Shown one piece after another: positions 3,473-56,003 of a stretch of DNA of 64,000 nt; the stretch's first letter is position 1, and each line of letters opens with the position of its first letter. Source of the DNA: Candidatus Levyibacteriota bacterium (lineage in GTDB: Bacteria; Patescibacteriota; Microgenomatia; Levybacterales; UBA12049); assembly GCA_018061075.1 (NCBI GenBank), contig JAGOUW010000001.1, positions 167,105 to 231,104 on the forward strand, written 5' to 3'. The position numbers were made by a program, and so were the translations under genes. The notes under the pieces were generated by a model. The model was not told the DNA's origin. It worked only from the letters and a program-made list of their open reading frames with translations, and did not search any database.

Positions 3473-3748
3473 CTATTTTTTCTTTTTTACCGGAGCTGGT
3501 TTAGAAGGAGTTTTTGAGCCTGATAATTTAGCTAATCTAGATTTAAGTCTAGCAGCTTTGTTTTTGTGAATTACATTTTTCTTTGCAGCCTTATCTAAGA
3601 CCTTTGCGGCTTCTGCTAATTTTTTTGCTGTAGGACTTGTTCTTGTGTCTTTAAGAGTTTTTTTGAATTTTGATTTTAAATCTCTATTCTTTATTTCTCT
3701 TTTTAAGTCCTGTCTAAGTTTTTTTCTGGCCTGTTTTGTTACTGGCAT
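3473..3748 (-). CDS. rpsT: 30S ribosomal protein S20
   Basis: 91 aa, very basic: MPVTKQARKKLRQD...NVIHKNKAARLKSRLAKL. Typical S20. Confidence 0.9.
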   Translation of the reverse strand: MPVTKQARKKLRQDLKREIKNRDLKSKFKKTLKDTRTSPTAKKLAEAAKVLDKAAKKNVIHKNKAARLKSRLAKLSGSKTPSKPAPVKKKK

Positions 3749-3754
3749 GCACGC

Positions 3755-3783
3755 ATTTTAGCATGATATACTGATATTCGCAA
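3755..3783 (-). promoter_or_regulatory. Putative sigma70-type promoter of rpsT (leaderless geometry)
   Basis: On the minus strand: TTGCGA (3783..3778), 17 nt, TAAAAT (3760..3755), then only 6 nt (gcgtgc) before the ATG at 3748. No Shine-Dalgarno sequence is possible. Confidence 0.35.
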
Positions 3784-3800
3784 GCTAATTTGCTCTTTTT

Positions 3801-5513
3801 ATGCCTTTACGTTTTTTCCAAAAAGGTCTTTCTCTTCTTTTAAAAAAGCAGACAAACATTCTTTCCGCCGCTTTAGTTTTGATGGCGACTGTAATTCTTT
3901 CCCAGGTCTTAGGGCTTTTTCGACAGCGTTTACTAGCTGGAATTTTCGGTGCATCGGATACATTAGGAGTCTATTTAGTCTCTTCTAAGCTTCCTGATTT
4001 TTTGTTCCAGCTCATAATTGCAGGCGCACTTTCATCAGCTTTTATTCCTGTTTTTGCAGATCTTCTCCATAAAGGAAGGGAAACGGAAGCAAATAAAATG
4101 GCGTCTACTTTAATGGTCATGGGTTTTGCTTTTTTTGGTTTGGTTTCAATAATTTTATTTATTTTTGCTCCAATTTTCCTTCAGCTTTTTAATTTAGGAT
4201 CTGGATATCCACCGCATCAAATGGATCTAATGACAAATCTTATGAGAATAATTATTTTTGGTCAAATAATTTTCCTCGTTGCAACTTTTTTTTCTGCAAT
4301 TCTTCAATCTCACAATCATTTTTTTATTCCAGGAATCGCAGCTGCTCTTTATAACTTTGGAATAATTATTGGAATTTTATTATTCTCAGATAGAATTGGT
4401 ATTTATGCTCCAGCAGTTGGTGTAATAATTGGAGCTCTTTGTTATGCGCTATTTCAAATACCTCTAATTAGACGAGTGCATTTTTCTTTTAGACCTACAT
4501 TTTCATTTGACACAGCCGGAGTAAAAGACGTTTTAAAACTTATCTGGCCGAGAAGTTTATCATTATTTATTTTTCAAATTGGAACATTAATAACTGTTTC
4601 TTTAATCTCTTTTCTCCCATCAGCAGGGAGAAATTATGTTATTTTAGATTTTGCGCAGACTTTAGCATTTGCCCCGATTGTTTTGTTTGGTCAGTCAATC
4701 GCCCAAGCAGCTTTTCCAGTTTTGTCCCGCGAAAAAGATAGACTGGATATTTTTAGAACCACATTCTTAACGAGTTTTAATCAAATGCTTTATTTAGTTC
4801 TTCCCGTATCGGTACTATTTATAGTGCTACGTATTCCAATTGTCAGACTTATATTCGGAGCTGCAAGATTTGACTGGGAAGCAACAGTCTTAACTGGAAG
4901 AACTTTAGCATTTTTCGCATTCGCAATTTTTGCTCAGGCTTTAATTTATTTAGTGTCTCGTGCTTTTTACGCACTTCATGATACGAAAAGCCCACTTATA
5001 GTTGGAGCAATTTCTACCGTAATAATGCTTATCTTAAGCTTCTTTTTCGTAACTTATTGGAATACTAATTTAGTAAGTCTTGCTGAATCTTATGGAAGAT
5101 TTAAAATTATACCTTTTGGCGTAGAGGGAATTGCATTAGCAACTTCTATTGGGGGACTTATAAATCTTTCTATACTTCTTTTCTTGTTAAATAGAAGAAT
5201 AAAAATTTTTAATTTAAAGGATTTTTGGGTTCCACAGTTAAAAATATTTTTATCAGTGATATTTATGGGTTTTGCATTATATATTCCAATAAAACTTTTA
5301 GACCAATTAGTTTTCGATACCACGAAAACTGTAAATTTGATTGCTCTAACCGGAATTTCAAGTATTGCTGGTCTTTCAATTTACCTATTCTTAACATGGC
5401 TTCTAAATGTAAAAGAAGCAGAAACATTTTTATATATGTTCAGGCGTTTAAGTGGATATAAAGAATTAGTAGATAAAAGTGAAAAAATTATCGACGTGAA
5501 GGCTAGTCAATAA
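3801..5513 (+). CDS. murJ: Lipid II flippase MurJ/MviN
   Basis: 570 aa polytopic membrane protein. N-terminus ...SAALVLMATVILSQVLGLFRQRLLAGIFGASDTLGVY is typical of the MurJ family. Confidence 0.85.
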   Translation: MPLRFFQKGLSLLLKKQTNILSAALVLMATVILSQVLGLFRQRLLAGIFGASDTLGVYLVSSKLPDFLFQLIIAGALSSAFIPVFADLLHKGRETEANKMASTLMVMGFAFFGLVSIILFIFAPIFLQLFNLGSGYPPHQMDLMTNLMRIIIFGQIIFLVATFFSAILQSHNHFFIPGIAAALYNFGIIIGILLFSDRIGIYAPAVGVIIGALCYALFQIPLIRRVHFSFRPTFSFDTAGVKDVLKLIWPRSLSLFIFQIGTLITVSLISFLPSAGRNYVILDFAQTLAFAPIVLFGQSIAQAAFPVLSREKDRLDIFRTTFLTSFNQMLYLVLPVSVLFIVLRIPIVRLIFGAARFDWEATVLTGRTLAFFAFAIFAQALIYLVSRAFYALHDTKSPLIVGAISTVIMLILSFFFVTYWNTNLVSLAESYGRFKIIPFGVEGIALATSIGGLINLSILLFLLNRRIKIFNLKDFWVPQLKIFLSVIFMGFALYIPIKLLDQLVFDTTKTVNLIALTGISSIAGLSIYLFLTWLLNVKEAETFLYMFRRLSGYKELVDKSEKIIDVKASQ

Positions 5514-5550: not shown

Positions 5551-7287
5551 ATGAATTCAAATATTAGAAATTTCGCAATTATCGCTCATGTCGATCATGG
5601 TAAATCGACCCTTGCTGATAGATTTCTAGAGTTAACAAAAACTATGACTCTAAGTAAAATCGGCGAGCAGTATCTTGATACAAATCCAATTGAGAAAGCC
5701 CGTGGCATAACTATAAAACTGGCGCCAGTTAGGATGAATTATCGTTTTAACGATAAAGAATACGTATTGAACTTAATAGATACTCCGGGTCACGTAGATT
5801 TTTCTTATGAAGTTAGTCGCACTCTTGCAGCATGTGAAGGAGCAATTCTACTCGTTGACGCGACTCAGGGAGTTCAGGCGCAGACTGTCGCGCATTTTTT
5901 CGCGGCACAAAAAGAGGGCCTAACGATAATCCCTGTTATTAATAAAATAGATCTTCAGAGTTCAAAAACAGAAGAAGTTGTAAAAGAGCTTGAGGAAATT
6001 TTTGGAATAAAAAAAGAAGAGATTATTTATATTTCTGCAAAGACTGGTCAAAATGTTCCAGAACTTTTAAAAGCGGTTGTTGAAAAAATTCCACCACCCA
6101 AGGGTTTAACTGACTCTCCGCTTAGAGCTTTGATATTTGATGCTTTATATGATGAGCACAGAGGAGTTATTGTTTACGTTAGAGTTGTGGACGGTACGCT
6201 TCCAAAAAATGGAAAAATAACTTTTTTCCAAAGTGAAAAAACTACAAATGCAGGGGAAATTGGATGTTTTACTCCTCTTATGACTCCGCGAAATGAATTA
6301 ATTGCAGGGGAGATTGGATACATAGTGACTGGGATTAAAGATATTCATGAGACTCAAGTTGGAGATACGATTTGTCTAGTTTCTTCTGGAGTGGATCCGC
6401 TTCCTGGATATAAAAAACCTCAACCAATGGTTTTCTTTGGAGTTTATCCAAAGACAACTGATGAATTAGTAAATTTAAAAGAAGGTTTAAATAAATATGC
6501 GCTTAATGATACGTCTATTACGATTGCCACTGAATATTCCTCTTTCCTTGGAAATGGATTTCGCGTAGGATTTTTAGGACTACTTCACGCAGACATTGTC
6601 CGCCAAAGATTAAGGGAAGAAGAAAATGTGGATTTATTTTTGACTTCTCCTCAAGTGCTTTATGAAAAAAAAGAAAACGGAGATATGCTCGAGCCTTATA
6701 TGAACTTAACCATCTTCGTTCCTTCCAGTTATGTGGGGGGTGTGATTTCAATTTGCCAACAAAGAAAAGGAAATATGCTTGATGTTAGTTATTTTCAAAG
6801 TAGTGCAATTCTAAAATATGACATGCCGTATTCTATGCTCGTCCGTGGTTTGTCATCTGATCTAAAGTCCACAACATCTGGATATGCCAGTATAGATTAT
6901 GAAATTTCAGATTATAGACCCGCGGATTTAGTAAATATAGAAATAAGAATTAATGATGTTCCAGTAGATGTTTTAAGTGAATATGCATATAGAGATGAAG
7001 CGCCTTATATCGCTCGCGAAAAAGCAGAAAAACTAAAAGAAAAACTCCCTCGTCAGCAGTTTAGGCAAGTCATCCAAGCTATAATTGGCGGAAATATAAT
7101 TGCCCGTGAGGAAATTTCTGCTTACAAGAAAGATGTTTTGATGCATGGTAGTAAGGTAGTTGGTGGAGGAGATGTTACTCGAAAGAAAATGCTTTTGGAA
7201 AAACAGAAAAAAGGAAAAGAAAGAATGACTGAAACCGGAAAAGTCACCATCCCCCAAGAAGTCCTCTTTAGTTTAATAGAGAAATAG
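5551..7287 (+). CDS. lepA: Translation elongation factor 4 (LepA)
   Basis: IRNFAIIAHVDHGKSTLADRFLE, DTPGHVDF and NKID G-motifs, plus a LepA C-terminal region. The track starts at TTG 5542; the ATG at 5551 is preferred. Confidence 0.95.
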   Translation: MNSNIRNFAIIAHVDHGKSTLADRFLELTKTMTLSKIGEQYLDTNPIEKARGITIKLAPVRMNYRFNDKEYVLNLIDTPGHVDFSYEVSRTLAACEGAILLVDATQGVQAQTVAHFFAAQKEGLTIIPVINKIDLQSSKTEEVVKELEEIFGIKKEEIIYISAKTGQNVPELLKAVVEKIPPPKGLTDSPLRALIFDALYDEHRGVIVYVRVVDGTLPKNGKITFFQSEKTTNAGEIGCFTPLMTPRNELIAGEIGYIVTGIKDIHETQVGDTICLVSSGVDPLPGYKKPQPMVFFGVYPKTTDELVNLKEGLNKYALNDTSITIATEYSSFLGNGFRVGFLGLLHADIVRQRLREEENVDLFLTSPQVLYEKKENGDMLEPYMNLTIFVPSSYVGGVISICQQRKGNMLDVSYFQSSAILKYDMPYSMLVRGLSSDLKSTTSGYASIDYEISDYRPADLVNIEIRINDVPVDVLSEYAYRDEAPYIAREKAEKLKEKLPRQQFRQVIQAIIGGNIIAREEISAYKKDVLMHGSKVVGGGDVTRKKMLLEKQKKGKERMTETGKVTIPQEVLFSLIEK

Positions 7288-21932: not shown

Positions 21933-23018
21933 ATGATTAGATTAGAAGGAGATTCAAGGGGAATATCTTCAGCGCAAATTAGACATCCCGATAGGGGAAT
22001 ATTAGCTCCTAATCACATATCAAGTCTCATTTTAATTGCGCAAGGAAATACTTATCCTGAGGTGGCAAAATTAAGAGGAGTTAGCGTTCAACAGATTAAA
22101 AATGTAGCTAATGAATTGAGAGGCAGGCTGGGTGTGTCAACTATGCCGGAGGCTATAGAAAGAGCGGCAGATTTAGGAGTTATAGATCTTAGAGCGATGG
22201 TTAGTTCAGGTTTTGACCCATCTGTATTTAGTTCTTTTGGAGAAAGTGACAGAGTGGTTATTGATGGAATTTCTAAAGGGAAACCCTATAAAGAAATTAG
22301 CGCCGAGCTAGGTGTTTCAGAGAGTATGGTAAAAAATAGAGCTGCTTCAATAGCTAAGCTTATTGGTGCAAAAGGATCATCTCATATGGCAACACATTTT
22401 TTTTTCGCAAAGCAAGTGAAAAAAGAAGAAGCTATTGTTCGGGGAGAGGACCCCTCCCGGGTAGATGTTTTTGGTCCATTGCAAGAAGTGTCCCACGCTA
22501 AGAAAGGTTTAATCGAGATAGATAAAAAGTTGTCTCCGAGAGAAAAGAGTGCGCTTGAGCTAGCTGGTAAAGGCTTCTCAGAAAAGGGTATCGGGGGTAT
22601 TTTGGGGCTTTCTAAGAATACAGTTAAGCAATATCTTGCTCACGCAAGAGCAAGGTTTGGAGTTGGTACTACAAGAGGTCTTCTCGTTGAAGCAATAAAC
22701 TTAGGAATGATAAACGTAGAGTTTGCTATTTCTCAAGGTATCGAGGCGGAGGCTTTGGGTGAATTAGATATGGCTGAAAGAAAAATTCTATCCAGCTTAA
22801 TGATAGACAAGCCAATGGTAGACTTGGTTAAGGAGCTTGGTATGTCTTATTCAGATTTTGATAAAGCTTTAATAATTGTTTTGGGGAAAATTAAAGCTTT
22901 AAATCCTGCCCAAGCAGTAGTTATGTTACTTAAGATTAAAAAAGAAGGTTATATTGAAGATGGTAAATTCGAGGGATTTACTTTTAATCATCACGTAAAG
23001 GTAAATGAGGTTGCTTAA
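21933..23018 (+). CDS. Protein made of four tandem LuxR/GerE-type HTH domains
   Basis: Four repeats of the GerE pattern, e.g. GNTYPEVAKLRGVSVQQIKNVANELRGRLGV, GKPYKEISAELGVSESMVKNRAASIAKLIG, GFSEKGIGGILGLSKNTVKQYLAHARARFGV and a degenerate fourth. No receiver or sensor domain. Confidence 0.65.
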   Translation: MIRLEGDSRGISSAQIRHPDRGILAPNHISSLILIAQGNTYPEVAKLRGVSVQQIKNVANELRGRLGVSTMPEAIERAADLGVIDLRAMVSSGFDPSVFSSFGESDRVVIDGISKGKPYKEISAELGVSESMVKNRAASIAKLIGAKGSSHMATHFFFAKQVKKEEAIVRGEDPSRVDVFGPLQEVSHAKKGLIEIDKKLSPREKSALELAGKGFSEKGIGGILGLSKNTVKQYLAHARARFGVGTTRGLLVEAINLGMINVEFAISQGIEAEALGELDMAERKILSSLMIDKPMVDLVKELGMSYSDFDKALIIVLGKIKALNPAQAVVMLLKIKKEGYIEDGKFEGFTFNHHVKVNEVA

Positions 23019-24475: not shown

Positions 24476-24850
24476 TTACTTTTTTTTGATTAGGAAAAGT
24501 TCGATTGTAATTAGTAATGCAATTGATAGAGTTAGGAAAATCCAATGGGTTAGGCCGATTAGGCGCATTAATAGATATCCCAAGACTATTAGTGTAATTG
24601 CTACACCGTGTTGTTTTCCTATAAATATAAAAGTAGACAATGAAAAAATTAGAAGACCCAGTGTTGCGAAGAAAATTGGGAGTATTGGGATCGTAACTGC
24701 GGAAATTTGAAATTTGTGAAACGGGGAAAAGTTTACAAAAAGATAAGTGGTGATAATTGTAAGCAAGATAGCAATTAATAAATAAATATAATTGTGTCTT
24801 TTTCTGGCAATTGGTTTAAGTTTTTTTCTTGTTTTTCCTAAATTCTCCAC
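24476..24850 (-). CDS. Small polytopic membrane protein
   Basis: 124 aa, basic N-terminus, 3-4 TM helices. Confidence 0.45.
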   Translation of the reverse strand: MENLGKTRKKLKPIARKRHNYIYLLIAILLTIITTYLFVNFSPFHKFQISAVTIPILPIFFATLGLLIFSLSTFIFIGKQHGVAITLIVLGYLLMRLIGLTHWIFLTLSIALLITIELFLIKKK

Positions 24851-24878
24851 AAGAATTAGTATAACATTTAAAACCCTC

Positions 24879-24907
24879 TTGACAGGAATTAGCAGACGTG
24901 CTATATT
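24879..24907 (+). promoter_or_regulatory. Putative sigma70 promoter of the hrcA-grpE-dnaK operon
   Basis: TTGACA (24879..24884), 17 nt, TATATT (24902..24907). Confidence 0.5.
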
Positions 24908-24915
24908 ACTGCTAA
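24889..24915 (+). promoter_or_regulatory. CIRCE-like inverted repeat (candidate HrcA operator)
   Basis: TTAGCAGAC-N9-TACTGCTAA, compared with the CIRCE consensus TTAGCACTC-N9-GAGTGCTAA. The 27-nt length and the outer 7-nt arms TTAGCAG/CTGCTAA are conserved. It overlaps the promoter spacer and -10 box. Confidence 0.55.
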
Positions 24916-24945
24916 GTCCAATTTAAGACGTTAAATTGAATACTG

Positions 24946-25022
24946 CTAACATCTAACGACTAACTTCTAACGCAAATAAACGATATTGTTAGTAGTTAGA
25001 AGTCAGAAGTTATTAGTTAAAA
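24946..25022 (+). repeat. Inverted arrays of phased heptamer repeats (CTAACNN x4 / GTTAGNN-like x5) in the hrcA leader
   Basis: CTAAC at 24946, 24953, 24960 and 24967. GTTAG, GTTAG, GTCAG, GTTAT and GTTAA at 24988, 24995, 25002, 25009 and 25016. Exact 7-nt phasing, and the arms are reverse-complementary. Confidence 0.6.
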
Positions 25023-25024
25023 TT

Positions 25025-25756
25025 ATGCATGATTTGACACAGCGTCAAATAGAGATTTTAAAGTCTCTAATTGAGGAGTACATTGAAACGGCAGAACCAG
25101 TAGGCTCTGAGACTCTTGAGAAAAAACATTCTCTCTCAGCTTCGCCTGCAACAATTCGAAATGAAATGGTGAGATTAACCGATTACGGTTATCTTAAAAA
25201 GACTCACATTTCATCAGGCAGAGTTCCTACCCCAGCTGCAATGAAATTTTACGTAAAGCAGCTCATGAAGGAGAAGGATCTTTCGGTTGCAGAAGAAGTC
25301 TCGATGAAAGAGAAAGTCTGGGATATAAGAAATAAGGAGGCAGAATTTCTTAAAGAAGTAACCAGAGCGCTCGCAAATAAAACAGGAGCAATCGCAATTG
25401 CAGCAACCGATAACGGAGAATATTTTATTTCAGGTTATGCAAATTTGCTTGAGATGCCAGAGTTTTTCGATATAGACATAACGAAAACTTTGCTTTCAGC
25501 AATTGACGAGTTTGAATGTTTTAGAATTCTTTTCGCAGCAGCCGGAACTGACAGTGAAATACAGGTTCTTATGGGAGACGATCTTGGCCCAACTTTGGCA
25601 GGTCCATATGGATTTGTATTTAAAAAGTACACAACGCTGGAGCACGGTGGAGGAGAAATTGGAGTAATTGGTCCAACGAGACTTAACTACACTCAAGTTG
25701 TGCCAACCGTTAGATATTTTGGAAATTTAATAGAAGAAGTTGCAAAGGGATGGTAA
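25025..25756 (+). CDS. hrcA: Heat-inducible transcription repressor HrcA (short form)
   Basis: LTQRQIEILKSLIEEYIETAEPVGSETL...ATIRNEMVRL...GVIGPTRLNY. ATG 25025 preferred; the track start at 24986 reads through the repeat array. Confidence 0.85.
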   Translation: MHDLTQRQIEILKSLIEEYIETAEPVGSETLEKKHSLSASPATIRNEMVRLTDYGYLKKTHISSGRVPTPAAMKFYVKQLMKEKDLSVAEEVSMKEKVWDIRNKEAEFLKEVTRALANKTGAIAIAATDNGEYFISGYANLLEMPEFFDIDITKTLLSAIDEFECFRILFAAAGTDSEIQVLMGDDLGPTLAGPYGFVFKKYTTLEHGGGEIGVIGPTRLNYTQVVPTVRYFGNLIEEVAKGW

Positions 25757-26226
25757 TGATGACAAAGAAAAATGATACAGAAGAAAATTTGGATGAAGAA
25801 AGTATTGAGATAGACGTTGAAAACGATCAGTTAAAGAACCTTGAAAATCAATTAAAAAGAGCACTTGCTGATTATCAGAATCTTGAAAGAAGGATAACAG
25901 AGGAGAAAAGTGCTTGGATAATGGCAGCAAATAAAGATTTGATCTTGAAACTTTTACCAGTTTTAGATAATCTATTTCTTGCACAGAAACATATTACTGA
26001 CGCCGGTCTAGATCTTTCTATTCAGAAATTTTTAGACGCCCTTTATAATGAGGGAATGGAGCGGATCGAAACCAAAGGCAGGGATTTCGACCCACACTTG
26101 ATGGAATGTGTTTCGGTGCAAGAAGGAACAGAGGATAAAGTACTTGAAGAGGTAAGACCTGGATTTAAAATAAATGATACAGTTCTTAGACCAGCCCAAG
26201 TAATTGTAGGAGGACAAAAAAACTAA
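25750..26226 (+). CDS. grpE: Nucleotide exchange factor GrpE
   Basis: [14 protein letters not shown]..., C-terminal ...[16 protein letters not shown]. Lies between hrcA and dnaK. Confidence 0.85.
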
Positions 26227-26227
26227 T

Positions 26228-28153
26228 ATGGCAAAAATAATTGGAATTGATTTAGGTACAACAAACTCATGTGTAGCCGTTATGGAAGGTGGAGCACCAA
26301 AAGTGATTCACTCTAGAGAAGGCCGCAACACTATCCCTTCAGTGGTAGACCCAGTAAGTCACGTTGTGGGAGATGTAGCAAAGCGTCAGCTCGTTCTTAA
26401 ACCAAAAAACACAATCTTTTCTATTAAAAGACTCATGGGTAAAAAGTTTAAGGATGAGAGTGTTCAATTTGATTCGAAATGGCTTCCATACACTATTAAA
26501 GAGGGAAGAGAAGGAATGGCGACAGTTGAAGTAGATGGGAAAACTTTAACTCCTCAGGAAGTTTCAGCAATGATTCTTCAGAAAATAAAGGCTGATGCGG
26601 AATCTTATTTGGGAGATAAAGTAACTCAAGCTGTGATTACGGTGCCAGCATATTTTGATGATTCTCAGCGTCAAGCTACAAAACAAGCTGGAGAAATCGC
26701 AGGCCTTGAAGTTCTAAGAATTATAAATGAGCCTACCGCAGCAGCGCTAGCTTATGGTTTGGACAAGAAAAACGCACACACAATTGCTGTTTATGATCTT
26801 GGAGGGGGAACTTTTGATATCTCAATTCTTGAACTTGGAGAAGGAGTTTATGAAGTTAAATCCACAAATGGAGATACTCATCTTGGAGGAGACGACTTTG
26901 ATCAAGCAATTATTGATTACTTAGCAGAAGAATTTAAGAAAGAGAATAATGTAGATCTTAAAAAAGATCCACAAGCTCTTCAGAGACTTAGAGAGTCAGC
27001 TGAAAAAGCTAAGATTGAATTATCAACTTCACAAGAAGCTCAAATTAATCAGCCATTCATTACTCAGGGAGAAAATGGCCCACTTCATCTTACAACTACT
27101 CTAACTCGTGCAAAATTAGAGCAAATCGTAGATCCTTTAGTTCAGAAAACTCTAAAACCAGTAGAGCAGGCTTTAAAAGACGCAAAAGTAAAAGTAACTG
27201 AGATTGATGAAATAGTTTTGGTCGGAGGAATGACCAGAATGCCAAAGATTGTCGAGACAGTAACTAAATTCTTTGGAAAAGAACCAAATAAATCGGTAAA
27301 TCCAGACGAGGTTGTAGCAGTTGGTGCTGCAGTTCAGGCTGGAGTATTAGGCGGAGAAGTTAAGGATGTGCTTCTATTAGATGTTACGCCTTTAACTCTT
27401 GGAATTGAGACTTTAGGGTCAGTTTCTACTCCTCTTATTTCAAAAAATACAACTATTCCTACTTCAAAGTCTCAGGTTTTCTCAACTGCTGCAGATAATC
27501 AAACACAGGTAGAAATTAATGTTTTGCAGGGTGAGCGCGCAATGGCAGCCGATAATAAGTCACTTGGACGTTTTATATTAGACGGAATTCCACCAGCTCC
27601 ACGAGGCGTACCACAAGTAGAAGTTACTTTTGATATCGATGCGTCTGGTATCCTAAACGTAAAAGCTCAAGATAAAGCTTCAGGAAAAGAACAAAGTATT
27701 AAAATTACAGGTTCAACAGGCTTAACTGATGAGGAAATCGATAAAATGACAAAGGATGCTGAAGCTCATGCAAAAGAAGACGAGGATAAGAAGGCTATGG
27801 TTGAGGCTAAGAATCAGGCTGATTCACTTATCTTTACTGCAGAAAAAAGTCTAAAGGACGGCGGAGATAAGGTGCCAGCTGAGCTAAAGACTGAGGTTGA
27901 GGATAAAATTAAATCTCTAAAAGATGTTTTGAATTCAGATTCTAAAGAGGAAATCGAAACAAAAACAAATGAATTGTCAGAAAGTCTTCAGAAAATTGGA
28001 CAGCAAATGAATTCTGCAGGTCAAAATCCTGAGAGTGCAACGCCAGAAGATGCTTCTAGTTCTGAAAATACTGAGGCTAACGGAGAAAATCCAAAAGAAG
28101 AAGAGAAGAAAAAAAATCCAGACGAACCAGTCGAAGGCGAAGTAGTAAATTAA
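26228..28153 (+). CDS. dnaK: Chaperone DnaK (Hsp70)
   Basis: [39 protein letters not shown]. Confidence 0.98.
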
Positions 28154-28171
28154 CCCCTTAAACCTCTAAAA

Positions 28172-28180
28172 TGGTATAAT
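28172..28180 (+). promoter_or_regulatory. Extended -10 element (TGgTATAAT) directly upstream of glmS
   Basis: TG at 28172..28173 and TATAAT at 28175..28180, 10 nt before ATG 28191. No SD in between. Confidence 0.3.
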
Positions 28181-28190
28181 TCAACCTAAT

Positions 28191-29957
28191 ATGTGTGGAA
28201 TTTTTGGATACGTTGGTAAGAAAACAGACACCCCAAATATGATTCTTGATGGGCTCAAGCTTCTGGAATACAGGGGCTATGATTCATGGGGAATTGCTGT
28301 AAAATCTGGAGATAAAATTCAGGTAGAAAAACATGTTGGAAAAATAGGAGACGCTAAGGTAAATTTACCGGAAAGTGAGATTGGAATAGGGCATACTCGT
28401 TGGGCGACTCACGGAGGCGTAACTCAGGAAAATTCACACCCACATTTAGACTGCACGGAAAATATAGCAGTTGTGCATAACGGAATAATTGAGAATTATA
28501 AAGAAATAAAAGATGATCTTTTGAAAAAAGATCACAAATTCCACTCAGAAACTGACACTGAGATTTTCCCCCATCTTATAGAGGAGTTTATTAAATCTGA
28601 AGATTTAAATTTTACTGATGCTTTTAGAATTGCTTTTAATTCCATAAAAGGCCTTAATGCAATTGTCGCAATTAACACAAAAACAAATGAAATTGCAGCT
28701 GCAAAAACCGGTTCACCTCTCGTAGTGGGAGTAGGAGAAGACGCTTTTTATATTTCTTCAGATCCAAATGGAGTCGCAGTGCATACTGATAAAGCACTGT
28801 TTATTAAGGATCATGAAATGGTGGTTATCGGAAAAAGTCTTCAGCTTTTTTCTCTTCCGGATGGGTTAAGTGTAACGCCCGCTTTGGAAACTTTGGAAAA
28901 AGCTCTTAAAGAAGAGGGGATGGGAGAATTTCCTCACTTTATGATTAAGGAAATAACTGAGCAATCCCAAGTTTTGGAAAACATCGCAAATAATTATTCT
29001 CCTCAGATTGAGAAATTAGGGAAGAGTATAAAAAATGCATATGGAACTTATTTTATAGGTGCTGGAACTGCATATTTTGCATGTTTAATGGGAACTTATT
29101 TATTTTCAAAAATTGCAAAAATTCACGTAAATACTGCACCAGCCTCTGAATTTAACTATCTCGAAGATTTTTTAACAGAAAAAAGTCTGATTATCGCTCT
29201 GTCTCAATCCGGAGAAACAATTGATGTGGTTGAGCCACTTCAAAGAGCAAAGAAAAAAGGAAGTAAGGTAATTGCTATAACAAACGTAAAAGGGTCTTCG
29301 ATTTACAGAATGAGTGATGAGCAAATGCTTTTAGGAGCGGGTTCTGAGAGGGCTGTTGCTTCAACTAAAGTTTTCTTAGCAAAACTTGGAATTCTCCTTA
29401 TGCTTTCATACGCTATGAAAGGGGAGGTTGAGAAAGGAAAAGAATTAGTGGAAAAAGCGTCTAAAGAAATTAAAAGAATTTTAGAAGAAGATAGTTTAGA
29501 AAAAATAAAAAAAGTTGCATATTTCTTGGGTGCACATGAGCACATTTTCATAATTGGACGGGGAGCTTCATATCCAGCAGCGCTTGAGGCCGCGCTTAAA
29601 ATTCGCGAAGTGAGCTACCTTCATGCAGAAGGATTAGCCGGAGGAGAACTAAAACATGGATCAATAGCATTAATCTCTAAAGGAACTCCAGTTATAGTTT
29701 TTGCGCCAAATGATGAAACATATCAAGCTGTAATTTCAAATGCAATGGAGGTTAAGGCGAGGGGCGGAGTAATAATTGGTGTAAGCCATGAAAATAACGA
29801 TGTTTTTGATCATTTCATTGTAGTTAAAGATATTGAAGAAGGAAGTTTGATTGCTCAGATTTTACCTGCTCAGATCATAGCTTATTATTTAGCTGTAATG
29901 AAGAATTATGATCCAGATAAGCCACGAAATCTTGCAAAAAGCGTAACTGTAAAATAA
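28191..29957 (+). CDS. glmS: Glutamine--fructose-6-phosphate aminotransferase
   Basis: MCGIFGY N-terminal nucleophile, two SIS domains (SQSGETID), C-terminal KSVTVK-type end. Confidence 0.95.
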   Translation: MCGIFGYVGKKTDTPNMILDGLKLLEYRGYDSWGIAVKSGDKIQVEKHVGKIGDAKVNLPESEIGIGHTRWATHGGVTQENSHPHLDCTENIAVVHNGIIENYKEIKDDLLKKDHKFHSETDTEIFPHLIEEFIKSEDLNFTDAFRIAFNSIKGLNAIVAINTKTNEIAAAKTGSPLVVGVGEDAFYISSDPNGVAVHTDKALFIKDHEMVVIGKSLQLFSLPDGLSVTPALETLEKALKEEGMGEFPHFMIKEITEQSQVLENIANNYSPQIEKLGKSIKNAYGTYFIGAGTAYFACLMGTYLFSKIAKIHVNTAPASEFNYLEDFLTEKSLIIALSQSGETIDVVEPLQRAKKKGSKVIAITNVKGSSIYRMSDEQMLLGAGSERAVASTKVFLAKLGILLMLSYAMKGEVEKGKELVEKASKEIKRILEEDSLEKIKKVAYFLGAHEHIFIIGRGASYPAALEAALKIREVSYLHAEGLAGGELKHGSIALISKGTPVIVFAPNDETYQAVISNAMEVKARGGVIIGVSHENNDVFDHFIVVKDIEEGSLIAQILPAQIIAYYLAVMKNYDPDKPRNLAKSVTVK

Positions 29958-33160: not shown

Positions 33161-33696
33161 AATATATTGCTGTTTTTTGCTCATCCAGGGATTTAGATCC
33201 TAAATACATTGAGCCTGCTAAGGAGTTTTCTAGACTTCTAGTACAGCATGGATATCATTTGGTCTTCGGTGGGTCTGATACGGGGCTTATGAAAGTAGTC
33301 GCTGATGAGGTAAGAAAAAACGGTGGAGAAGTAATTGGTGTTTCTATGCAGGTTTTTCACAATGTAGCTAGAAAAGATGTAAGTGAAATGATTGTTGCAA
33401 ATGACTTAGGTCAAAGAAAAGCCATAATGTTAGATAAGGCGGTTGCGATCGTAGCATTGGTAGGCGGACTAGGAACTTTAGATGAACTTCTTCACATAGC
33501 AGAACTTAAAAGACAAAAACATCATGAAAAGCCAATTGTGGTTTTGGACACAGATAATTTTTATGAAGGCTTAAGAGTCCAATTTAAGAAAATGGAAGAC
33601 GATAAATTTAACGCTTTTGATATGCGGGAATACATAATGTTTAGAAATACTCCTCAAGAAGCGATAGATTTTATTAACGAAGAACTTGATAAATGA
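33157..33696 (+). CDS. LOG-family (TIGR00730) nucleotide phosphoribohydrolase
   Basis: VFGGSDTGLMKVVADE and GGLGTLDEL motifs. ATGA overlap with the upstream ORF. ATG 33157 preferred to the track start at 33139. Confidence 0.8.
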   Translation: MKYIAVFCSSRDLDPKYIEPAKEFSRLLVQHGYHLVFGGSDTGLMKVVADEVRKNGGEVIGVSMQVFHNVARKDVSEMIVANDLGQRKAIMLDKAVAIVALVGGLGTLDELLHIAELKRQKHHEKPIVVLDTDNFYEGLRVQFKKMEDDKFNAFDMREYIMFRNTPQEAIDFINEELDK

Positions 33697-34724
33697 TAAA
33701 ATTTCCAGGACTCATCGATCCGCATGTCCACTTAAGAACTCCTGGCCAAACTCATAAAGAAGATTTTTTAACTGGCACTAAGGCTGCGATTGTTGGGGGG
33801 TTTACAGCAGTAATTGATATGCCAAACAACAAAATACCAATTACCAGTTACCAATTACTAATTGAAAAAGAAAATATTGCGAAAGAGAAAATAGTATCTG
33901 ATATTGGATTTTATTTTGGTTCGCTCGGTGATAATTTAGCAGAATTTGAAAAAGTAAAAGATAAGGTAATGGGACTGAAATTATATCTTAATCAAACGAC
34001 AGGCGGATTTATTATTGATCAGAAAAGTTTGACACGAATTTATGATGCATGGTCTGGTCCTCCGATTCTTGTTCATGCTGAGGAAGATGTCATAGATTTG
34101 GTAATTGAAGTCTGCGAAAAAACAAAAAAGAAAACTCATATTTGTCATGTTAGTTCAGCTGAAGAATTAGAAAAAATTATAATTGCTAAGAAAAAAGGTT
34201 TGCCAATAACTTGTGGAGTGACACCTCATCATTTATTTCTGACAGAAGAAGATGTTGATCGCCTGGATACTTTCGGGCTTATGAAGCCTCCTGTTTATGA
34301 TGGATTTTCAGATTTTGCATTTAAAAATTTAAAATGGATTGATGTTATAGAATCAGACCATGCGCCACATACAAAAGAAGAAAAAAATTCAGAGAATCCA
34401 CCGTTCGGAGTTCCAAATTTAGAAACCACATTGGGTTTGTTATTGTCCGCAGAATCAAAAGGCTTACTAACAATTGAAGACATAAAGCGACTTTGTCATG
34501 ATGGGCCATCAGAAATATTTAGAATAAAACAAGATTCTGAAATAGAGGTAGATGAAGATGAGGAATGGACTGTTGATGGAAATCGTTTGGAAACTAAATG
34601 TAATTGGTCTCCATTTGAAGACTGGAAACTAAAAGGAAAAGTTAAGAAAGTCTATATTAGAAAAAAATTAGTATTTGAAAATGGACAATTTCTCGTAGAA
34701 TCAGGATTTGGAAAAGTGCTATAA
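33693..34724 (+). CDS. pyrC: Dihydroorotase-like amidohydrolase
   Basis: PGLIDPHVHLRTPG metal-binding start; ...VIESDHAPH. Adjacent to the pyrD-like gene. Confidence 0.7.
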   Translation: MIKFPGLIDPHVHLRTPGQTHKEDFLTGTKAAIVGGFTAVIDMPNNKIPITSYQLLIEKENIAKEKIVSDIGFYFGSLGDNLAEFEKVKDKVMGLKLYLNQTTGGFIIDQKSLTRIYDAWSGPPILVHAEEDVIDLVIEVCEKTKKKTHICHVSSAEELEKIIIAKKKGLPITCGVTPHHLFLTEEDVDRLDTFGLMKPPVYDGFSDFAFKNLKWIDVIESDHAPHTKEEKNSENPPFGVPNLETTLGLLLSAESKGLLTIEDIKRLCHDGPSEIFRIKQDSEIEVDEDEEWTVDGNRLETKCNWSPFEDWKLKGKVKKVYIRKKLVFENGQFLVESGFGKVL

Positions 34725-34732
34725 TTTTCGGG

Positions 34733-35794
34733 ATGTTAAAGCCATTTTTTGACCCTCTAAAAACTTACGAAGAAAATTATAAAAAAGGCCCCTTTGGAGA
34801 ATTCGCAAATAAAAAAGTTTATAAAGAAAAAGGTGCACCGGATCATTATTTATTTGGTCTTCCAATTTTTACTCCTTTTGGAATTCCAGCAGGTCCACTT
34901 TTAAATTCTAAATATGTAAACGCAGCCTTAGATAAAGGATTTGATCTTGTGGAATATAAAACTGTTAGAACTAAATTCCGCTTATCAAATGAATGGCCAA
35001 ATGTTCTGGCTGTAAAAGTTAAAGGAAATTTAACATTAGAGATGGCAGAAAAAGGAGTTATTGGAAATCAGAAATATGGAAATCCACTAGCAGTAACAAA
35101 TTCTTTTGGAGTTCCATCGATGGATCCAGAAGTTTGGCAAAAAGATTTAGCAAAAAGTGTTAAGCATGCAAAAAAAGGACAAGCTGTGATTGGAAGCTTC
35201 CAGGGAACGACTGAAGGAGATGTGAATAAATTTATTAAAGATTATGCTCTTGCTGCTAAATTGGTAAAAAAAACTGGAGTAAAAGTAATGGAGGTAAATT
35301 TATCTTGTCCAAATGAAGGATCTTCCCACTTAGTTTGCTTTGATGTTCCAAGGACGGTGGAGATAGTGGAAGCTATTAAAAATGAAATCGGAAATACGCC
35401 TTTAATTATTAAAATTGCATATTTTGAAGATCAGAAAAACTTAGAGAAATTAATTAAGTCCGTTGGAAAAATAGTTCAAGGAATTTCTGCGATAAATACA
35501 ATTCCTGCTAAAGTTTATAAAGAAAATGGTGAGCAGGCGTTGCCGGGGGGACCAATGAGATTAAAATCTGGAACATGCGGGCACCCTATTAAATGGGCGG
35601 GACTGGAAATGACAGAAAGACTTTTTAATCTAAGAAATGAGCTTGGATTTAATTTTAAAATTATTGGTGTGGGTGGCGTAACCCAAGCGAACGAATATTT
35701 TGAATATAGATCAAAAGGAGCAGATGCTGTGATGAGTGCGACTGGAGCCATGTGGAATCCACTTCTAGCCCAAGAAATAAAAAGTTTAATTTGA
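34733..35794 (+). CDS. pyrD: Dihydroorotate dehydrogenase-like flavoenzyme
   Basis: EVNLSCPN motif, GVGGV near the C-terminus, TIM-barrel DHOD/DHPD family pattern. Confidence 0.7.
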   Translation: MLKPFFDPLKTYEENYKKGPFGEFANKKVYKEKGAPDHYLFGLPIFTPFGIPAGPLLNSKYVNAALDKGFDLVEYKTVRTKFRLSNEWPNVLAVKVKGNLTLEMAEKGVIGNQKYGNPLAVTNSFGVPSMDPEVWQKDLAKSVKHAKKGQAVIGSFQGTTEGDVNKFIKDYALAAKLVKKTGVKVMEVNLSCPNEGSSHLVCFDVPRTVEIVEAIKNEIGNTPLIIKIAYFEDQKNLEKLIKSVGKIVQGISAINTIPAKVYKENGEQALPGGPMRLKSGTCGHPIKWAGLEMTERLFNLRNELGFNFKIIGVGGVTQANEYFEYRSKGADAVMSATGAMWNPLLAQEIKSLI

Positions 35795-35819
35795 TATTTA
35801 ATATCTAGATAAGTATAAT
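35791..35819 (+). promoter_or_regulatory. Putative sigma70 promoter with leaderless geometry for ORF 35826
   Basis: TTGATA (35791..35796), 17 nt, TATAAT (35814..35819), then 6 nt and ATG 35826. Confidence 0.4.
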
Positions 35820-35825
35820 CTCGCA

Positions 35826-36773
35826 ATGGCAGTAGAATTACCAGATAAACGGGGCGATGAATTTAGAGTTCCTCAGAGAACAGAAGCACCAGCTTATGCA
35901 GCTGCATTTACTTCTCATGCGGATTGGTTTGGATCTTTCATAGCTAATACCGATCAGAAAGTTGTACAGAGAATTACGCTTCTTGATGGGTTGCAGAGGT
36001 TTCAGGGTGTTTGGGATAAGGCAATAGATCCCGCGCAGGATTTTAGAGTTTTACTTTTAGGAGCTGGAAGAGGCGATTCGGAATTAGCAGCACTTAGTCA
36101 ATTAAAAGAATTAAGAGGTGACATGAGTAAGGTAAGTATTTTAGTAGAGGAGCCATCAGCGCAGATGCAAGGAGAATTATTAACTTCTGCTCAGGAAAGA
36201 GGTTTTGGGGCAAATATAAAAGGAATAGAAGGCAAGGAATTTGAAGATCCGACATATGTTCCTCCAGGCGTTGATTTAGCAGTAGGATTTCAGATGTGGC
36301 AATATGTAAAAGGATGGGAGGGTGTACCTGCAGTAGACAATTCTTTAGAAAAACTAAGAGCAACCGTTGCTGAGAGAGGTGGAGCTTCAGTTATTTCCGT
36401 AATGTCCCAAACAAGTGATAACTTTGCTTTAAGATCTAAGTATCTTCCAGTTATCCATGGAGAAGGAACGACAGAAACTACGGCAGAAATGATTTCAGAT
36501 CAACTTTATGCTCCCGATTTAGAAACACCCCACGATATCATAATTACCCCATCAACTTTAAATGTTAGCTCCGTGTTTCCAGATGGTCGTTTTGATCCAA
36601 CTCCAGAAGGTGCAAATATACTATCTTTTATATTAAGAGCTGACTGGAATGTTTTACCAGACGGTCTTAAAGTGCAAGTGGCGCAAGATTTAGAATATCT
36701 TGTAAGAAGAAATGATGGATATAGACTATCTTTTAGAGATGCTTACGTCTGGCTTCCTGGTATAGACAATTAA
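35826..36773 (+). CDS. Class I SAM-dependent methyltransferase-like protein (histamine-N-methyltransferase-like layout)
   Basis: FRVLLLGAGRGDSELAALSQL (motif I-like), then VEEPSAQM. The overall order resembles the HNMT family. It looks G+C-richer than its neighbours. Confidence 0.4.
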   Translation: MAVELPDKRGDEFRVPQRTEAPAYAAAFTSHADWFGSFIANTDQKVVQRITLLDGLQRFQGVWDKAIDPAQDFRVLLLGAGRGDSELAALSQLKELRGDMSKVSILVEEPSAQMQGELLTSAQERGFGANIKGIEGKEFEDPTYVPPGVDLAVGFQMWQYVKGWEGVPAVDNSLEKLRATVAERGGASVISVMSQTSDNFALRSKYLPVIHGEGTTETTAEMISDQLYAPDLETPHDIIITPSTLNVSSVFPDGRFDPTPEGANILSFILRADWNVLPDGLKVQVAQDLEYLVRRNDGYRLSFRDAYVWLPGIDN

Positions 36774-40807: not shown

Positions 40808-42238
40808 ATGGACGCTAAAAAAACTAACCAAGAATATCCTCCAGTCGTAGCCGTTTTAGGTCATGTTGACCATGGTAAGACTACTCTCCTAGACACTATA
40901 AGGAAAACTTCAATTGCGAGCCGCGAGCATGGCGGAATCACCCAGAAAATTGGAGCTTCAAGTGTCGAGATTGAGCATGAAGGAAAAAAGAGATGGATTA
41001 CTTTTATAGATACTCCTGGACACGAAGCTTTTGCTAAGATGCGAGGCCGCGGAGCACAAGCTGCAGATATTGGCTTGCTCATAGTGTCTTCGGTTGATGG
41101 AGTTATGCCTCAGACAAAAGAAAGCATAGGGCTTCTTAAAGCTTCAGGAGTCCCATATATAGTAGTACTCACTAAATCAGATGATCCTCAGAAAAACCCA
41201 GAAAAAGCAAAAAGAGATCTTATGAATGAAGAGATTCTCTTCGAGGGATTAGGTGGAGACGTGCCTGTAATTGAGGTTTCTTCAAAAACTGGAGCAAATA
41301 TTAAAGAATTACTGGATCTAATCTTACTTGTTAATGATCTTCATCCAAAATCAACTGAAATTTCTGAAAATGGACCGCTTAAAGCAATTGTAATTGAATC
41401 AAAACAGGATCCAAAAGCAGGTCCTAAGGCTACAGTTGTTGTAAAAAACGGTACGATTTCAGTTAGAGATGATGTTACGACTGGTGAAGTAAGCGGTAGA
41501 GTTAGAAATTTAATATTAGATTCTGGAAAAACCACACAGTCTGCAAGAGTTGGGGACGCAGTTGAGGTTTTAGGTTTTGAAACGGCTCCAAAGGTAGGGA
41601 ATGTTATATATAAAGGCTCAGAAATAAAGCTTTTAGAAGAGTCAGAAAAAGAAATTAGAAAAAAGAACAACGAGGACTATATTTCCTTAATTTTAGTAGC
41701 TGACACTTTAGGTTCTCTTGAGGCAATCGTAGCCTCACTTCCTGAGAAAATAAACATTATTTCTAAAAAAACTGGAGACATAACTACAGCTGATGTATTG
41801 CTTGCGAAATCAATTGGAGCATTAGTCTTAGGTTTTAATATAAAAATTAAGCCTGATGTAGCGCGTTTAGCCTCAACAGAAAAGGTTTTGGTTAGAAGTT
41901 ATGGCATTATTTATGAAATGCTTGATGAAATTAAAGATGTAGTAGAAGGAAAAGCATTGTCTCTTCTTGAAGAGGTTTATGGGACAGCAAAGGTTTTAGC
42001 GAGTTTTCCATACGAAAAGCAGATTGTTATGGGTATAAAGGTTCTTGAAGGCCGCGTTGCTAAGGGAGATAAGGTAAGAATTGAACGAGGAGACGAAATT
42101 ATCGGAGAGGGTTATATTAATTCAGTGAGAATTGGAAAAGATCAAACCTCCAAAGTCGAAGCAGGCCTGGAAGCGGGTATAATAGTAGGCCCTGCGCTTG
42201 ACTTTACTATAGGCGATATGATAATATGCCATAACTAA
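40808..42238 (+). CDS. infB: Translation initiation factor IF-2 (minimal form, G domain onward)
   Basis: PPVVAVLGHVDHGKTTLLD within the first 35 aa, DTPGHEAF and TKSD. 476 aa in total. Confidence 0.92.
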   Translation: MDAKKTNQEYPPVVAVLGHVDHGKTTLLDTIRKTSIASREHGGITQKIGASSVEIEHEGKKRWITFIDTPGHEAFAKMRGRGAQAADIGLLIVSSVDGVMPQTKESIGLLKASGVPYIVVLTKSDDPQKNPEKAKRDLMNEEILFEGLGGDVPVIEVSSKTGANIKELLDLILLVNDLHPKSTEISENGPLKAIVIESKQDPKAGPKATVVVKNGTISVRDDVTTGEVSGRVRNLILDSGKTTQSARVGDAVEVLGFETAPKVGNVIYKGSEIKLLEESEKEIRKKNNEDYISLILVADTLGSLEAIVASLPEKINIISKKTGDITTADVLLAKSIGALVLGFNIKIKPDVARLASTEKVLVRSYGIIYEMLDEIKDVVEGKALSLLEEVYGTAKVLASFPYEKQIVMGIKVLEGRVAKGDKVRIERGDEIIGEGYINSVRIGKDQTSKVEAGLEAGIIVGPALDFTIGDMIICHN

Positions 42239-55977: not shown

Positions 55978-56003
55978 ATACATCTCGTTATAATAGACTA
56001 ATT

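Follow-up and report, generated by a model that had tools for sequence, protein, structure and literature searches.

Class I heat-shock genes are regulated by the repressor HrcA through the operator known as the controlling inverted repeat of chaperone expression (CIRCE), whose consensus is TTAGCACTC-N9-GAGTGCTAA. The stretch of DNA considered here, 64,000 nucleotides (nt) from a Candidatus Levyibacteriota bacterium of the candidate phyla radiation (CPR) and hereafter called the window, carries an hrcA-grpE-dnaK operon in which the promoter and the first start codon are separated by two inverted arrays of phased 7-nt repeats (heptads). The question that this locus raises is what such a leader does, if it does anything. 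A sequence-only reading of the locus had proposed that a degenerate CIRCE is followed by an RNA thermometer or by a cooperative array of protein-binding sites. On present evidence the two leader hairpins, P1 and P2, are neither a canonical RNA thermometer nor a second operator. The explanation preferred here, to which we give an even chance, is a classical HrcA-autoregulated hrcA-grpE-dnaK control region combined with a leader RNA that acts in cis on the stability and translation of the mRNA. Promoter and CIRCE belong to known biology and only carry HrcA regulation over to a CPR phylum; the heptad hairpin is a new variation on a known but unexplained kind of sequence.

The comparison set consists of 80 orthologous loci from a scan of a genome collection, with HrcA identities of 67-99%, to which 8 loci were added by single-protein look-ups and 3 hrcA leaders by a metagenome pattern scan. 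Individual loci are cited as L001, L002, and so on. Coordinates of all features are collected in Table 1.

The Promoter and Its Operator

In a promoter scan the hrcA promoter matches 11 of 12 consensus positions, with a 17-nt spacer and a TG extension of the -10 box. The CIRCE inside it is the sole exact match to TTAGCA-N15-TGCTAA in the window. As in other HrcA/CIRCE systems, a 9-bp inverted repeat with a 9-bp spacer overlaps the sigma-70-type promoter of a class I chaperone operon, and the cognate hrcA is encoded as the first gene of that operon, an arrangement conserved across the phylum. The differences are that HrcA is here a short form of 243 amino acids (aa), that only 14 of the 18 consensus positions of CIRCE are matched, with the TTAGCA and TGCTAA cores exact, and that 7 of the 9 arm positions are complementary.

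The promoter, the CIRCE within it and the leader behind it were all found where the sequence-only reading had placed them, and Pfam supports the assignment of hrcA. The description of CIRCE as degenerate has to be abandoned, since this is the form typical of the phylum. With a strict pattern search, 78 of 89 loci have CIRCE at this position of the promoter, and the others have variants. In nearly every locus it reads T[TA][GA]GCA[GC]T[CGT]-N9-TA[CG]TGCTAA after cTTGACA and a spacer; the -10 box is embedded in the spacer and right arm of CIRCE. The form typical of Levybacteria, TTAGCAGnC-N9-TACTGCTAA, grades in other Levybacteria into TTAGCACTC-N9-tAGTGCTAA at the identical promoter position, and L025, L078, and L080 carry a near-canonical TTAGCACTC-N9-TAGTGCTAA that matches 17 of 18 consensus positions. 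The CIRCE of the window is 96-100% identical to those of L001-L006, although the flanking DNA is unrelated, and position 7 of the left arm is complementary to its palindromic partner in 58 of 74 sites (54 G/C, 4 C/G). Such position-wise conservation across loci, together with the grading into the canonical form, argues that CIRCE has not decayed in this lineage. Judged by its sequence, the copy in the window is the ordinary, conserved HrcA operator of the lineage.

The Leader and Its Two Hairpins

Transcription is predicted to start near 24914, at the usual 7-nt distance from the -10 box, which would give the hrcA mRNA a 5′ untranslated region (UTR) of about 110 nt. The two arms of P2 (24942-71 and 24988-25017) form a 30-nt inverted repeat that is 77% complementary. 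Read in the TAAC phase, the 5′ arm is composed of TAACATC, TAACGAC, TAACTTC, and TAACGCA, members of a TAACNNN family. The five heptads of the 3′ side, of GTYAKNA type, start at 24988, 24995, 25002, 25009, and 25016, leaving 2 nt between the last of them and the hrcA ATG (25025). When the four-heptad pattern CTAACNNCTAACNNCTAACNNCTAAC was searched for with at most 3 mismatches, only the two P2 arms were recovered in the window, and none of 100 shuffles contained it. The lag-7 score of hrcA (0.71) is the highest of the 52 genes of the window.

The segment 24910-25060 folds at -31.9 kcal/mol (z = -2.72) and is more stable than shuffled sequence, with 4 of 200 shuffles equally good; the leader folded alone gives z = -3.97. 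The same leader, with the same heptad numbers, is present in five independent assemblies that share an identical hrcA coding sequence, one of them with a single base change at -3, which rules out an assembly artefact and an unstable repeat. The inverted, exactly phased arrays of the sequence-only reading, and the hairpin that they form, are thus confirmed as real and beyond chance. The link that it drew between the right arm of CIRCE and the first heptad is not conserved. The sequence TACTGCTAA of that arm does recur at 24941-49, but its CTGCTAA is changed to CTACTAA in L008 and to CTTCTAA in L024. A second CIRCE built on this copy was also considered and rejected, because the arrangement is not conserved and its candidate left arm, TTAAGACGT, fits at only 4 of the 9 positions.

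Other known elements were considered for the leader. Rfam returned nothing relevant, either for the whole window at gathering scores or for 24800-25120 with E-values allowed up to 10. No terminator-like site and no T-run follow P2, which excludes an intrinsic terminator or attenuator. The operator of CtsR is a heptad direct repeat, A/GGTCAAA-NAN-A/GGTCAAA, with a 3-nt spacer and a period of 10; the leader contains no GGTCAAA and has a period of 7. An N-terminal extension of HrcA, read from the in-frame TTG at 24986, is ruled out by an in-frame TAG in the homologous stretch of L007 and by orthologues with other leaders, which begin at the same MHDLTQRQ.

A TATAAT-like -10 box ending 5-12 nt before the ATG, with a sharp peak at 6-10 nt, precedes 19 of the 52 window genes, which makes leaderless or near-leaderless mRNAs the apparent norm. 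From these sequence features, the hrcA leader of about 110 nt seems exceptional in this genome. Examples of such boxes lie at 28170-28193, 34715-34735, 35808-35828, and 55985-56006. The lack of a Shine-Dalgarno (SD) sequence before hrcA, to which the sequence-only reading had drawn attention, is real and yet nothing special, as even a loose SD-like match is found in only 8 of the 52 genes. Leaders of at least 40 nt fold with z < -2 in 28 of 41 cases, and most of them, with structures judged by eye, begin their first stem no more than 5 nt from the predicted 5′ end and keep an A/U tract unpaired ahead of the AUG. The leader also bears on the choice of internal AUGs in a host whose genes seem to be mostly leaderless.

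Conservation of the Leader

Leaders with both P1 and P2 are present in six species (the window, L007, L008, L012, L083, and L024), with variants in L098 and L103. Between the six species the 4-fold degenerate sites of hrcA are 30-56% identical, whereas identity is 76-90% in the 5′ arm of P2 (100% for L012 versus L083) and 80-96% in the 3′ arm. The P2 loop, at 46-74%, is near the neutral level, except for L012 versus L083 (96%). In all six the arms are free of indels, the copy number is identical, and the order of the heptad variants is conserved. The copy number is also constant in the five assemblies mentioned above, and a contingency or phase-variable repeat is excluded on both grounds.

Pairing was assessed in an alignment of seven leaders fitted to a covariance model; MAFFT and RNAalifold, applied independently to six leaders, gave the same helices. 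In the seven leaders 94.5% of the cells are paired, compared with 85.4% in shuffles, and changes on both sides occur at 10 pairs, a number reached by 0 of 500 shuffles. Sliding the partner by 1-3 columns reduces pairing to 18-45%. Compensatory changes affect 7 of the 10 pairs of P1; double changes affect 3 of the 19 pairs of P2, where one-sided changes are mostly G-U wobbles on the sense strand. The architecture is retained in L098 with CTAAA/TTTAG heptads and in L103 with AAATTCG-type units, so that pairing is kept although the unit sequence changes. Conservation of the hairpin in orthologous leaders, which the sequence-only reading had set as its own test, was accordingly found, within one subclade. 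To judge from these comparisons, P2 is under purifying selection where present. The strong conservation of its sequence, with little covariation, might mean that P2 pairs in several registers of 7 nt or that a factor recognises it.

A Proposed Role for the Leader

In the preferred explanation, a strong sigma-70-type promoter carries the HrcA operator over its spacer and -10 box, and bound HrcA would therefore occlude RNA polymerase, as follows from established HrcA/CIRCE biology and from the conserved arrangement at this locus. Transcription from near 24914 would produce a 5′ UTR with two hairpins. P1 is small and would lie about 5 nt from the 5′ end of the transcript; P2 is long, imperfect and A/U-rich, with complementary heptad arrays as its arms. 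We infer that the leader acts at the RNA level in two ways, by protecting the 5′ end and by damping the access of ribosomes to the repressor cistron. Hairpins near the 5′ end would shield the transcript from 5′-dependent decay, and P2 would hold some 20 nt upstream of the AUG double-stranded, giving a low translation rate for the repressor. In a possible variant, RNase III would cleave within P2.

Stabiliser hairpins at the 5′ end are known from the ermC, aprE, and ompA leaders of Gram-positive and E. coli mRNAs. The likeness lies in a stable stem-loop a few nt from the presumed 5′ end and in the ribonucleases of the host, since CPR bacteria retain RNase J, RNase III, and PNPase (PMC12641178). 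The differences are that P2 is much longer than a stabiliser requires and that the 5′ end is here predicted rather than mapped.

The 3′ arm of P2 is a heptad array of the sort found next to start codons elsewhere in the phylum, and the 7-nt phasing would reflect an origin as heptanucleotide simple-sequence arrays of the lineage rather than a dedicated binding register. The P1 and P2 element would be ancestral to one HrcA clade, under purifying selection where present, and lost or replaced repeatedly. Its absence from sister species and this repeated loss or replacement suggest that it modulates expression and is not essential.

Several observations weigh against this explanation. The start of transcription near 24914 is itself a prediction. 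Close relatives with 85-92% identity over the operon (L001, L003, and L004) have an 18-nt leader, and six species are nearly leaderless at hrcA, so that any function of the element is dispensable. The predicted folds leave the AUG and the preceding 7 nt unpaired, which would limit the case for translational attenuation. Although neutral sites are saturated, P2 has few compensatory changes (3 of 19 pairs), a sign that its sequence is constrained beyond what a purely structural role explains. The gap between CIRCE and the ATG also receives unrelated palindromic elements, and stable structure there may in part reflect a preference of insertion rather than selection.

Turnover of Leaders at the hrcA Locus

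The stretch between CIRCE and the ATG measures 1-183 nt, depending on the locus. In the HrcA tree the species with P1 and P2 span one clade, from L024 at its base to the window at its tip, and many intermediate members have short or different leaders. The nearest relatives of the window, at 85-92% nucleotide identity across hrcA-dnaK, have unrelated leaders. The 18-nt leader shared by L001, L003, and L004 (TCTAGATTTTwACAAGTT) is not contained in the long one, which excludes a simple deletion and indicates that leaders are replaced, not trimmed. Either the P1 and P2 leader underwent repeated losses, or recombination between the conserved promoter and the 5′ end of hrcA has swapped leader alleles.

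Over 646 kb the covariance model gives full-length matches only in hrcA leaders, six of them at 114-133 bits, with L098 and L103 at 50 and 48 bits. Likewise, Levybacteria copies of the P2 heptad pattern in the metagenome scan lie only upstream of hrcA. A mobile element of the kind of miniature inverted-repeat transposable elements (MITE) or repetitive extragenic palindromes (REP) is excluded for the leader, of which no other copies occur in the 646 kb or among the Levybacteria of the metagenome scan.

A different palindrome, CCCGyACA...GAGGyyTACr.CCTCGCG...TrTrCGGG (about 65 nt), turns up in different species to either side of the hrcA promoter and resembles a small dispersed REP/MITE-like repeat. 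It lies in the leader of L018, L072, L055, L048, and L083 and upstream of the promoter in L065, L022, L063, L098, and L083. In L048 (2850-3003) a near-leaderless hrcA start (ATGCATGATCTTACACAGCGA, 10 nt after CIRCE) is split by an insert of about 130 nt that carries the palindrome. Behind the insert the initial 21 nt of hrcA appear a second time, here with the SD-like AAGGAGAG in front of them. This arrangement looks like an insertion caught in the act.

Turnover of this kind is what would be expected if the leader were a neutral or selfish simple-sequence palindrome, produced by replication slippage and inverted duplication in a tolerant interval that separates operator and start codon, and persisting without a role. 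The element is absent from the nearest relatives, leader length is hypervariable, the gap holds unrelated palindromes elsewhere, L048 has an insertion with a duplicated target, and period-7 arrays are generic in the phylum and present in other phyla. Heptanucleotides are the commonest long simple-sequence repeats in many genomes, and polymerase slippage has been proposed as their cause (Mrazek 2007, as cited in PMC4679880). What makes this alternative unlikely is the behaviour of the arms, which stay 76-96% identical while 4-fold sites are near saturation and the loop drifts, and which, unlike an unstable repeat, are without indels in six species and five assemblies. Within Levybacteria the element is, moreover, single-copy and specific to hrcA.

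Heptad Arrays in Levybacteria and Beyond

The sequence-only reading had taken the strict 7-nt phasing for the mark of a dedicated cooperative protein-binding array. This is not supported, since period-7 arrays of many sequences pervade the intergenic DNA of Levybacteria. In the window and the 80 Levybacteria loci, Tandem Repeats Finder reports 166 arrays of period 7 versus 17 of period 6 and 41 of period 8, and the autocorrelation of intergenic DNA peaks at lags 7, 14, and 21. The phasing is generic: period 7 is the dominant tandem-repeat period of Levybacteria intergenic DNA. Such dominance in intergenic and intercistronic DNA of CPR bacteria is not reported in the heptamer-repeat papers that were found.

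About half of the intergenic period-7 arrays end within 25 nt of the ATG of a long open reading frame (ORF), with a mode of 2-5 nt. Where hrcA and grpE are separated, their spacer (at about 3730-3800 of the locus) typically consists of a stop codon, a small GC hairpin, four to five direct heptads, and an ATG, as with ATTCAAA, three times before the ATG, in L065 or TAGAAGT TAGATGA TAGAAGA and so on in L012. Further arrays are found in grpE-dnaK spacers (about 4200-4300) and after dnaK (about 6150-6300) in L001-L080. The heptad family of the P2 3′ arm itself forms direct arrays that abut grpE start codons in other Levybacteria, and inverted heptad-array hairpins stand before dnaK in L004 as well as before the gene that follows dnaK in L057 and L063.

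Inverted-heptad hairpins upstream of genes were noted at L004 4229-4296, L057 3620-3702, L063 6218-6300, L027 2374-2431, and L033 6529-6646; in several of them the 3′ array reaches the ATG, with a geometry like that of the hrcA leader of the window. The other period-7 arrays of the window are weak (TACCAAT, 4.1 copies, 33835-33863; TAGTATT, 3.3 copies, 1609-1630; AAAAAGA, 3.1 copies, 41646-41667), and the TACCAAT array apparently lies inside the ORF 33693-34724.

The metagenome scan for the P2 3′-arm pattern yielded 17 loci, of which 3 are Levybacteria hrcA leaders. The remaining loci, characterised by GC content (0.28-0.55) and gene context, carry AGTTAGN heptads as long arrays, as hairpins, or abutting start codons, on contigs of 28-55% GC with unrelated genes. 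GTTAG heptads thus occur in unrelated organisms too, and their phasing is not special to this leader. The loci from outside Levybacteria stand among L081-L097 (for example, L092 7982-8059, L095 1560-1663, and L093 734-766). One array has 11 copies, and another lies between two ribosomal-protein-like genes.

The heptads might nevertheless be read by a protein, at the DNA level as an auxiliary operator for HrcA or a second regulator, or at the RNA level by a ribosome-associated or cold-shock-type protein. Both P2 arms are conserved in sequence, down to the order of heptad variants and with few compensatory changes, and the heptads resemble CIRCE half-sites (CNNCTAA versus CTGCTAA, TTAGNAG versus TTAGCAG). 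Binders of the S1, Csp, or CsrA type were, moreover, proposed by MacGregor for heptamers that abut starts (PMC4679880). The heptad arrays of the phylum, however, have many unrelated unit sequences, a diversity that argues against a single sequence-specific binder, and L098 and L103 retain the architecture although their heptads differ. The first heptad owes its identity with the CIRCE arm to a G that is not conserved, the half-sites are everted, with a spacing that is wrong for CIRCE, and the adjacent P1 evolves by compensatory change, which fits an RNA structure rather than a DNA site. A heptad-reading protein is, on this balance, quite improbable.

Relation to Known Heptamer Repeats

Related heptamer repeats include the short tandemly repeated repetitive (STRR) heptamers of cyanobacteria. 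The sequence-only reading had not recognised the leader as any described element. Heptamer arrays that abut start codons have in fact been reported, as direct repeats of TAACTGA that mostly end a few nt before SD-less start codons in Beggiatoaceae, Cyanobacteria, and Bacteroidetes (MacGregor 2015, PMC4679880). Their function is unknown, and a translational role has been proposed; in the Beggiatoa (BOGUAY) genome, 169 of 170 sets are direct and one is inverted (PMC4679880). In Nostoc, heptamer repeats near start codons are reported to affect expression (bioRxiv 10.1101/2022.06.06.494920).

The hrcA leader shares with this class its tandem 7-nt units in intergenic DNA, with four and five phased copies (against a criterion of 2-6), an array that ends 2 nt before an ATG without SD, the TAACNNN unit in one phase, and a function that is unexplained in both. 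Like that class, its heptad family was recovered from unrelated organisms, in the metagenome scan. It differs in having two complementary arrays arranged as a hairpin, where BOGUAY has 169 direct sets and one inverted, in the reverse-complement orientation of the array next to the ATG, and in units that are degenerate rather than exactly TAACTGA. The host belongs to a CPR phylum not reported to carry such repeats, and the hrcA copy is under measurable purifying selection within a defined regulon. As to sets per genome, the 64-kb window has the hrcA locus and three weak arrays, and the 166 period-7 arrays are counted over Levybacteria loci, not over a whole genome.

A start-proximal heptamer repeat that stands in a defined regulon and has purifying selection, a partner arm, and natural knock-outs in sister species makes the function of heptamer repeats testable. 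It could be imagined that heptad arrays serve as an SD-independent signal for start selection or re-initiation, or as a platform for a ribosome-associated factor, and that the hrcA leader masks one such array with its exact complement. We regard this as distinctly improbable. If true, it would make HrcA synthesis depend on unwinding of the RNA by temperature, by a helicase or cold-shock protein, or by RNase III cleavage. It would also define a new class of cis-regulatory RNA built from simple-sequence repeats and would assign a function to heptamer repeats that have long gone unexplained in cyanobacteria, Beggiatoaceae, and Bacteroidetes.

The Question of an RNA Thermometer

Known RNA thermometers include ROSE, fourU, and the 5′ UTR of cyanobacterial hsp17. 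The resemblance is that a heat-shock gene has in its 5′ UTR, near the initiation region, a hairpin that is A/U-rich and imperfect. In such a scheme P2 would block ribosomes in the cold and melt on heat shock, raising the translation of hrcA and, by coupling, of grpE and dnaK. Consistent with this, the element sits in a heat-shock operon, its mismatches are conserved (for example, A.C opposite GTCAG in 5 of 6 species), and the 3′ arm of P2 falls within the expected 30S footprint. In silico, positions -20 to -1 become more open on warming, with an unpaired probability of 0.18 at 10 °C and of 0.42 at 45 °C, and three slipped registers of P2 (-20.0, -17.4, and -15.6 kcal/mol) lie within 4.4 kcal/mol, the weakest of them reaching the AUG.

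The temperature series of predicted folds speaks against the thermometer-type switch of the sequence-only reading. The AUG is unpaired with a probability of 0.94-0.85 over 10-55 °C (0.94 at 10 °C, 0.90 at 37 °C), and there is no SD to be masked. The segments of P2 melt together, with pair probabilities of about 0.8 (10 °C), 0.68 (37 °C), and 0.5 (50 °C), so that the midpoint, near 50 °C, lies outside the physiological range and far above groundwater temperatures; P1 is more stable than P2. The thermometer families of Rfam give no match, sister species manage without the element, and a thermometer on the repressor gene would produce more repressor during heat, counter to induction. A canonical thermometer is rejected on these predictions, and any thermometer at all is highly improbable.

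Neighbouring Genes and Minor Features

Table 1. Coordinates of the hrcA control region and its surroundings in the window.
Feature	Coordinates	Strand	Remarks
-35 hexamer TTGACA of the hrcA operon	24879..24884	+	conserved (cTTGACA) in about 80 orthologous loci
CIRCE operator	24889..24915	+	TTAGCAGAC-N9-TACTGCTAA; fills the promoter spacer, with the -10 box in its 9-nt spacer and right arm
Extended -10	24899..24907	+	TG, one base, TATATT (24902-24907)
P1 hairpin	24919..24938	+	CAAUUUAA, loop GACG, UUAAAUUG; predicted to fold
P2 5′ arm	24942..24971	+	four phased heptads CTAACNN at 24946, 24953, 24960, 24967
P2 loop	24972..24987	+	A/T-rich, not conserved
P2 3′ arm and remainder of array	24988..25022	+	pairs to 25017; heptads GTTAGTA, GTTAGAA, GTCAGAA, GTTATTA, GTTAAAA
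hrcA	25025..25756	+	short-form HrcA repressor, 243 aa; Pfam PF01628 (HrcA) and PF03444 (HrcA_DNA-bdg)
grpE	25750-26226	+	overlaps hrcA by 7 nt
dnaK	26228-28153	+	1-nt gap after grpE; grpE-dnaK tightly packed behind hrcA (25750..28153)
glmS-like gene	28191-29957		between dnaK and dnaJ; glutamine amidotransferase and SIS domains
Divergent promoter-like site	24858..24885	-	back-to-back with the hrcA promoter; consensus match only

The gene order 3′ of the leader is hrcA, grpE, dnaK, a glmS-like gene, and dnaJ. A search retrieved 4245 homologues of HrcA, the closest named ones being from Levybacteria or Microgenomates. HrcA typically measures about 340 aa; in the window and in all orthologues of the lineage it has 241-251 aa only, and the Pfam match of its C-terminal domain begins at profile position 74. 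The glmS-like gene (28191-29957) has a -10-like box of its own, 10 nt before the ATG.

Two genes upstream of the hrcA promoter lies a 361-aa protein (21933-23018) with helix-turn-helix domains of the LuxR/GerE and sigma-70 region-4 types, for which no link with the hrcA leader was found. The predicted target of the divergent promoter-like site is a 124-aa ORF (24850-24476). The -10 box of this site ends 7 nt before the ATG, so that its transcript would lack a leader. A direct repeat of 16 nt with 81% identity (TCTCCACAAGAATTAG at 24844-24859 and TCTTGACAGGAATTAG at 24877-24892), copies the region of the -35 hexamer and the left CIRCE arm 33 nt upstream and overlaps the start region of the divergent ORF.

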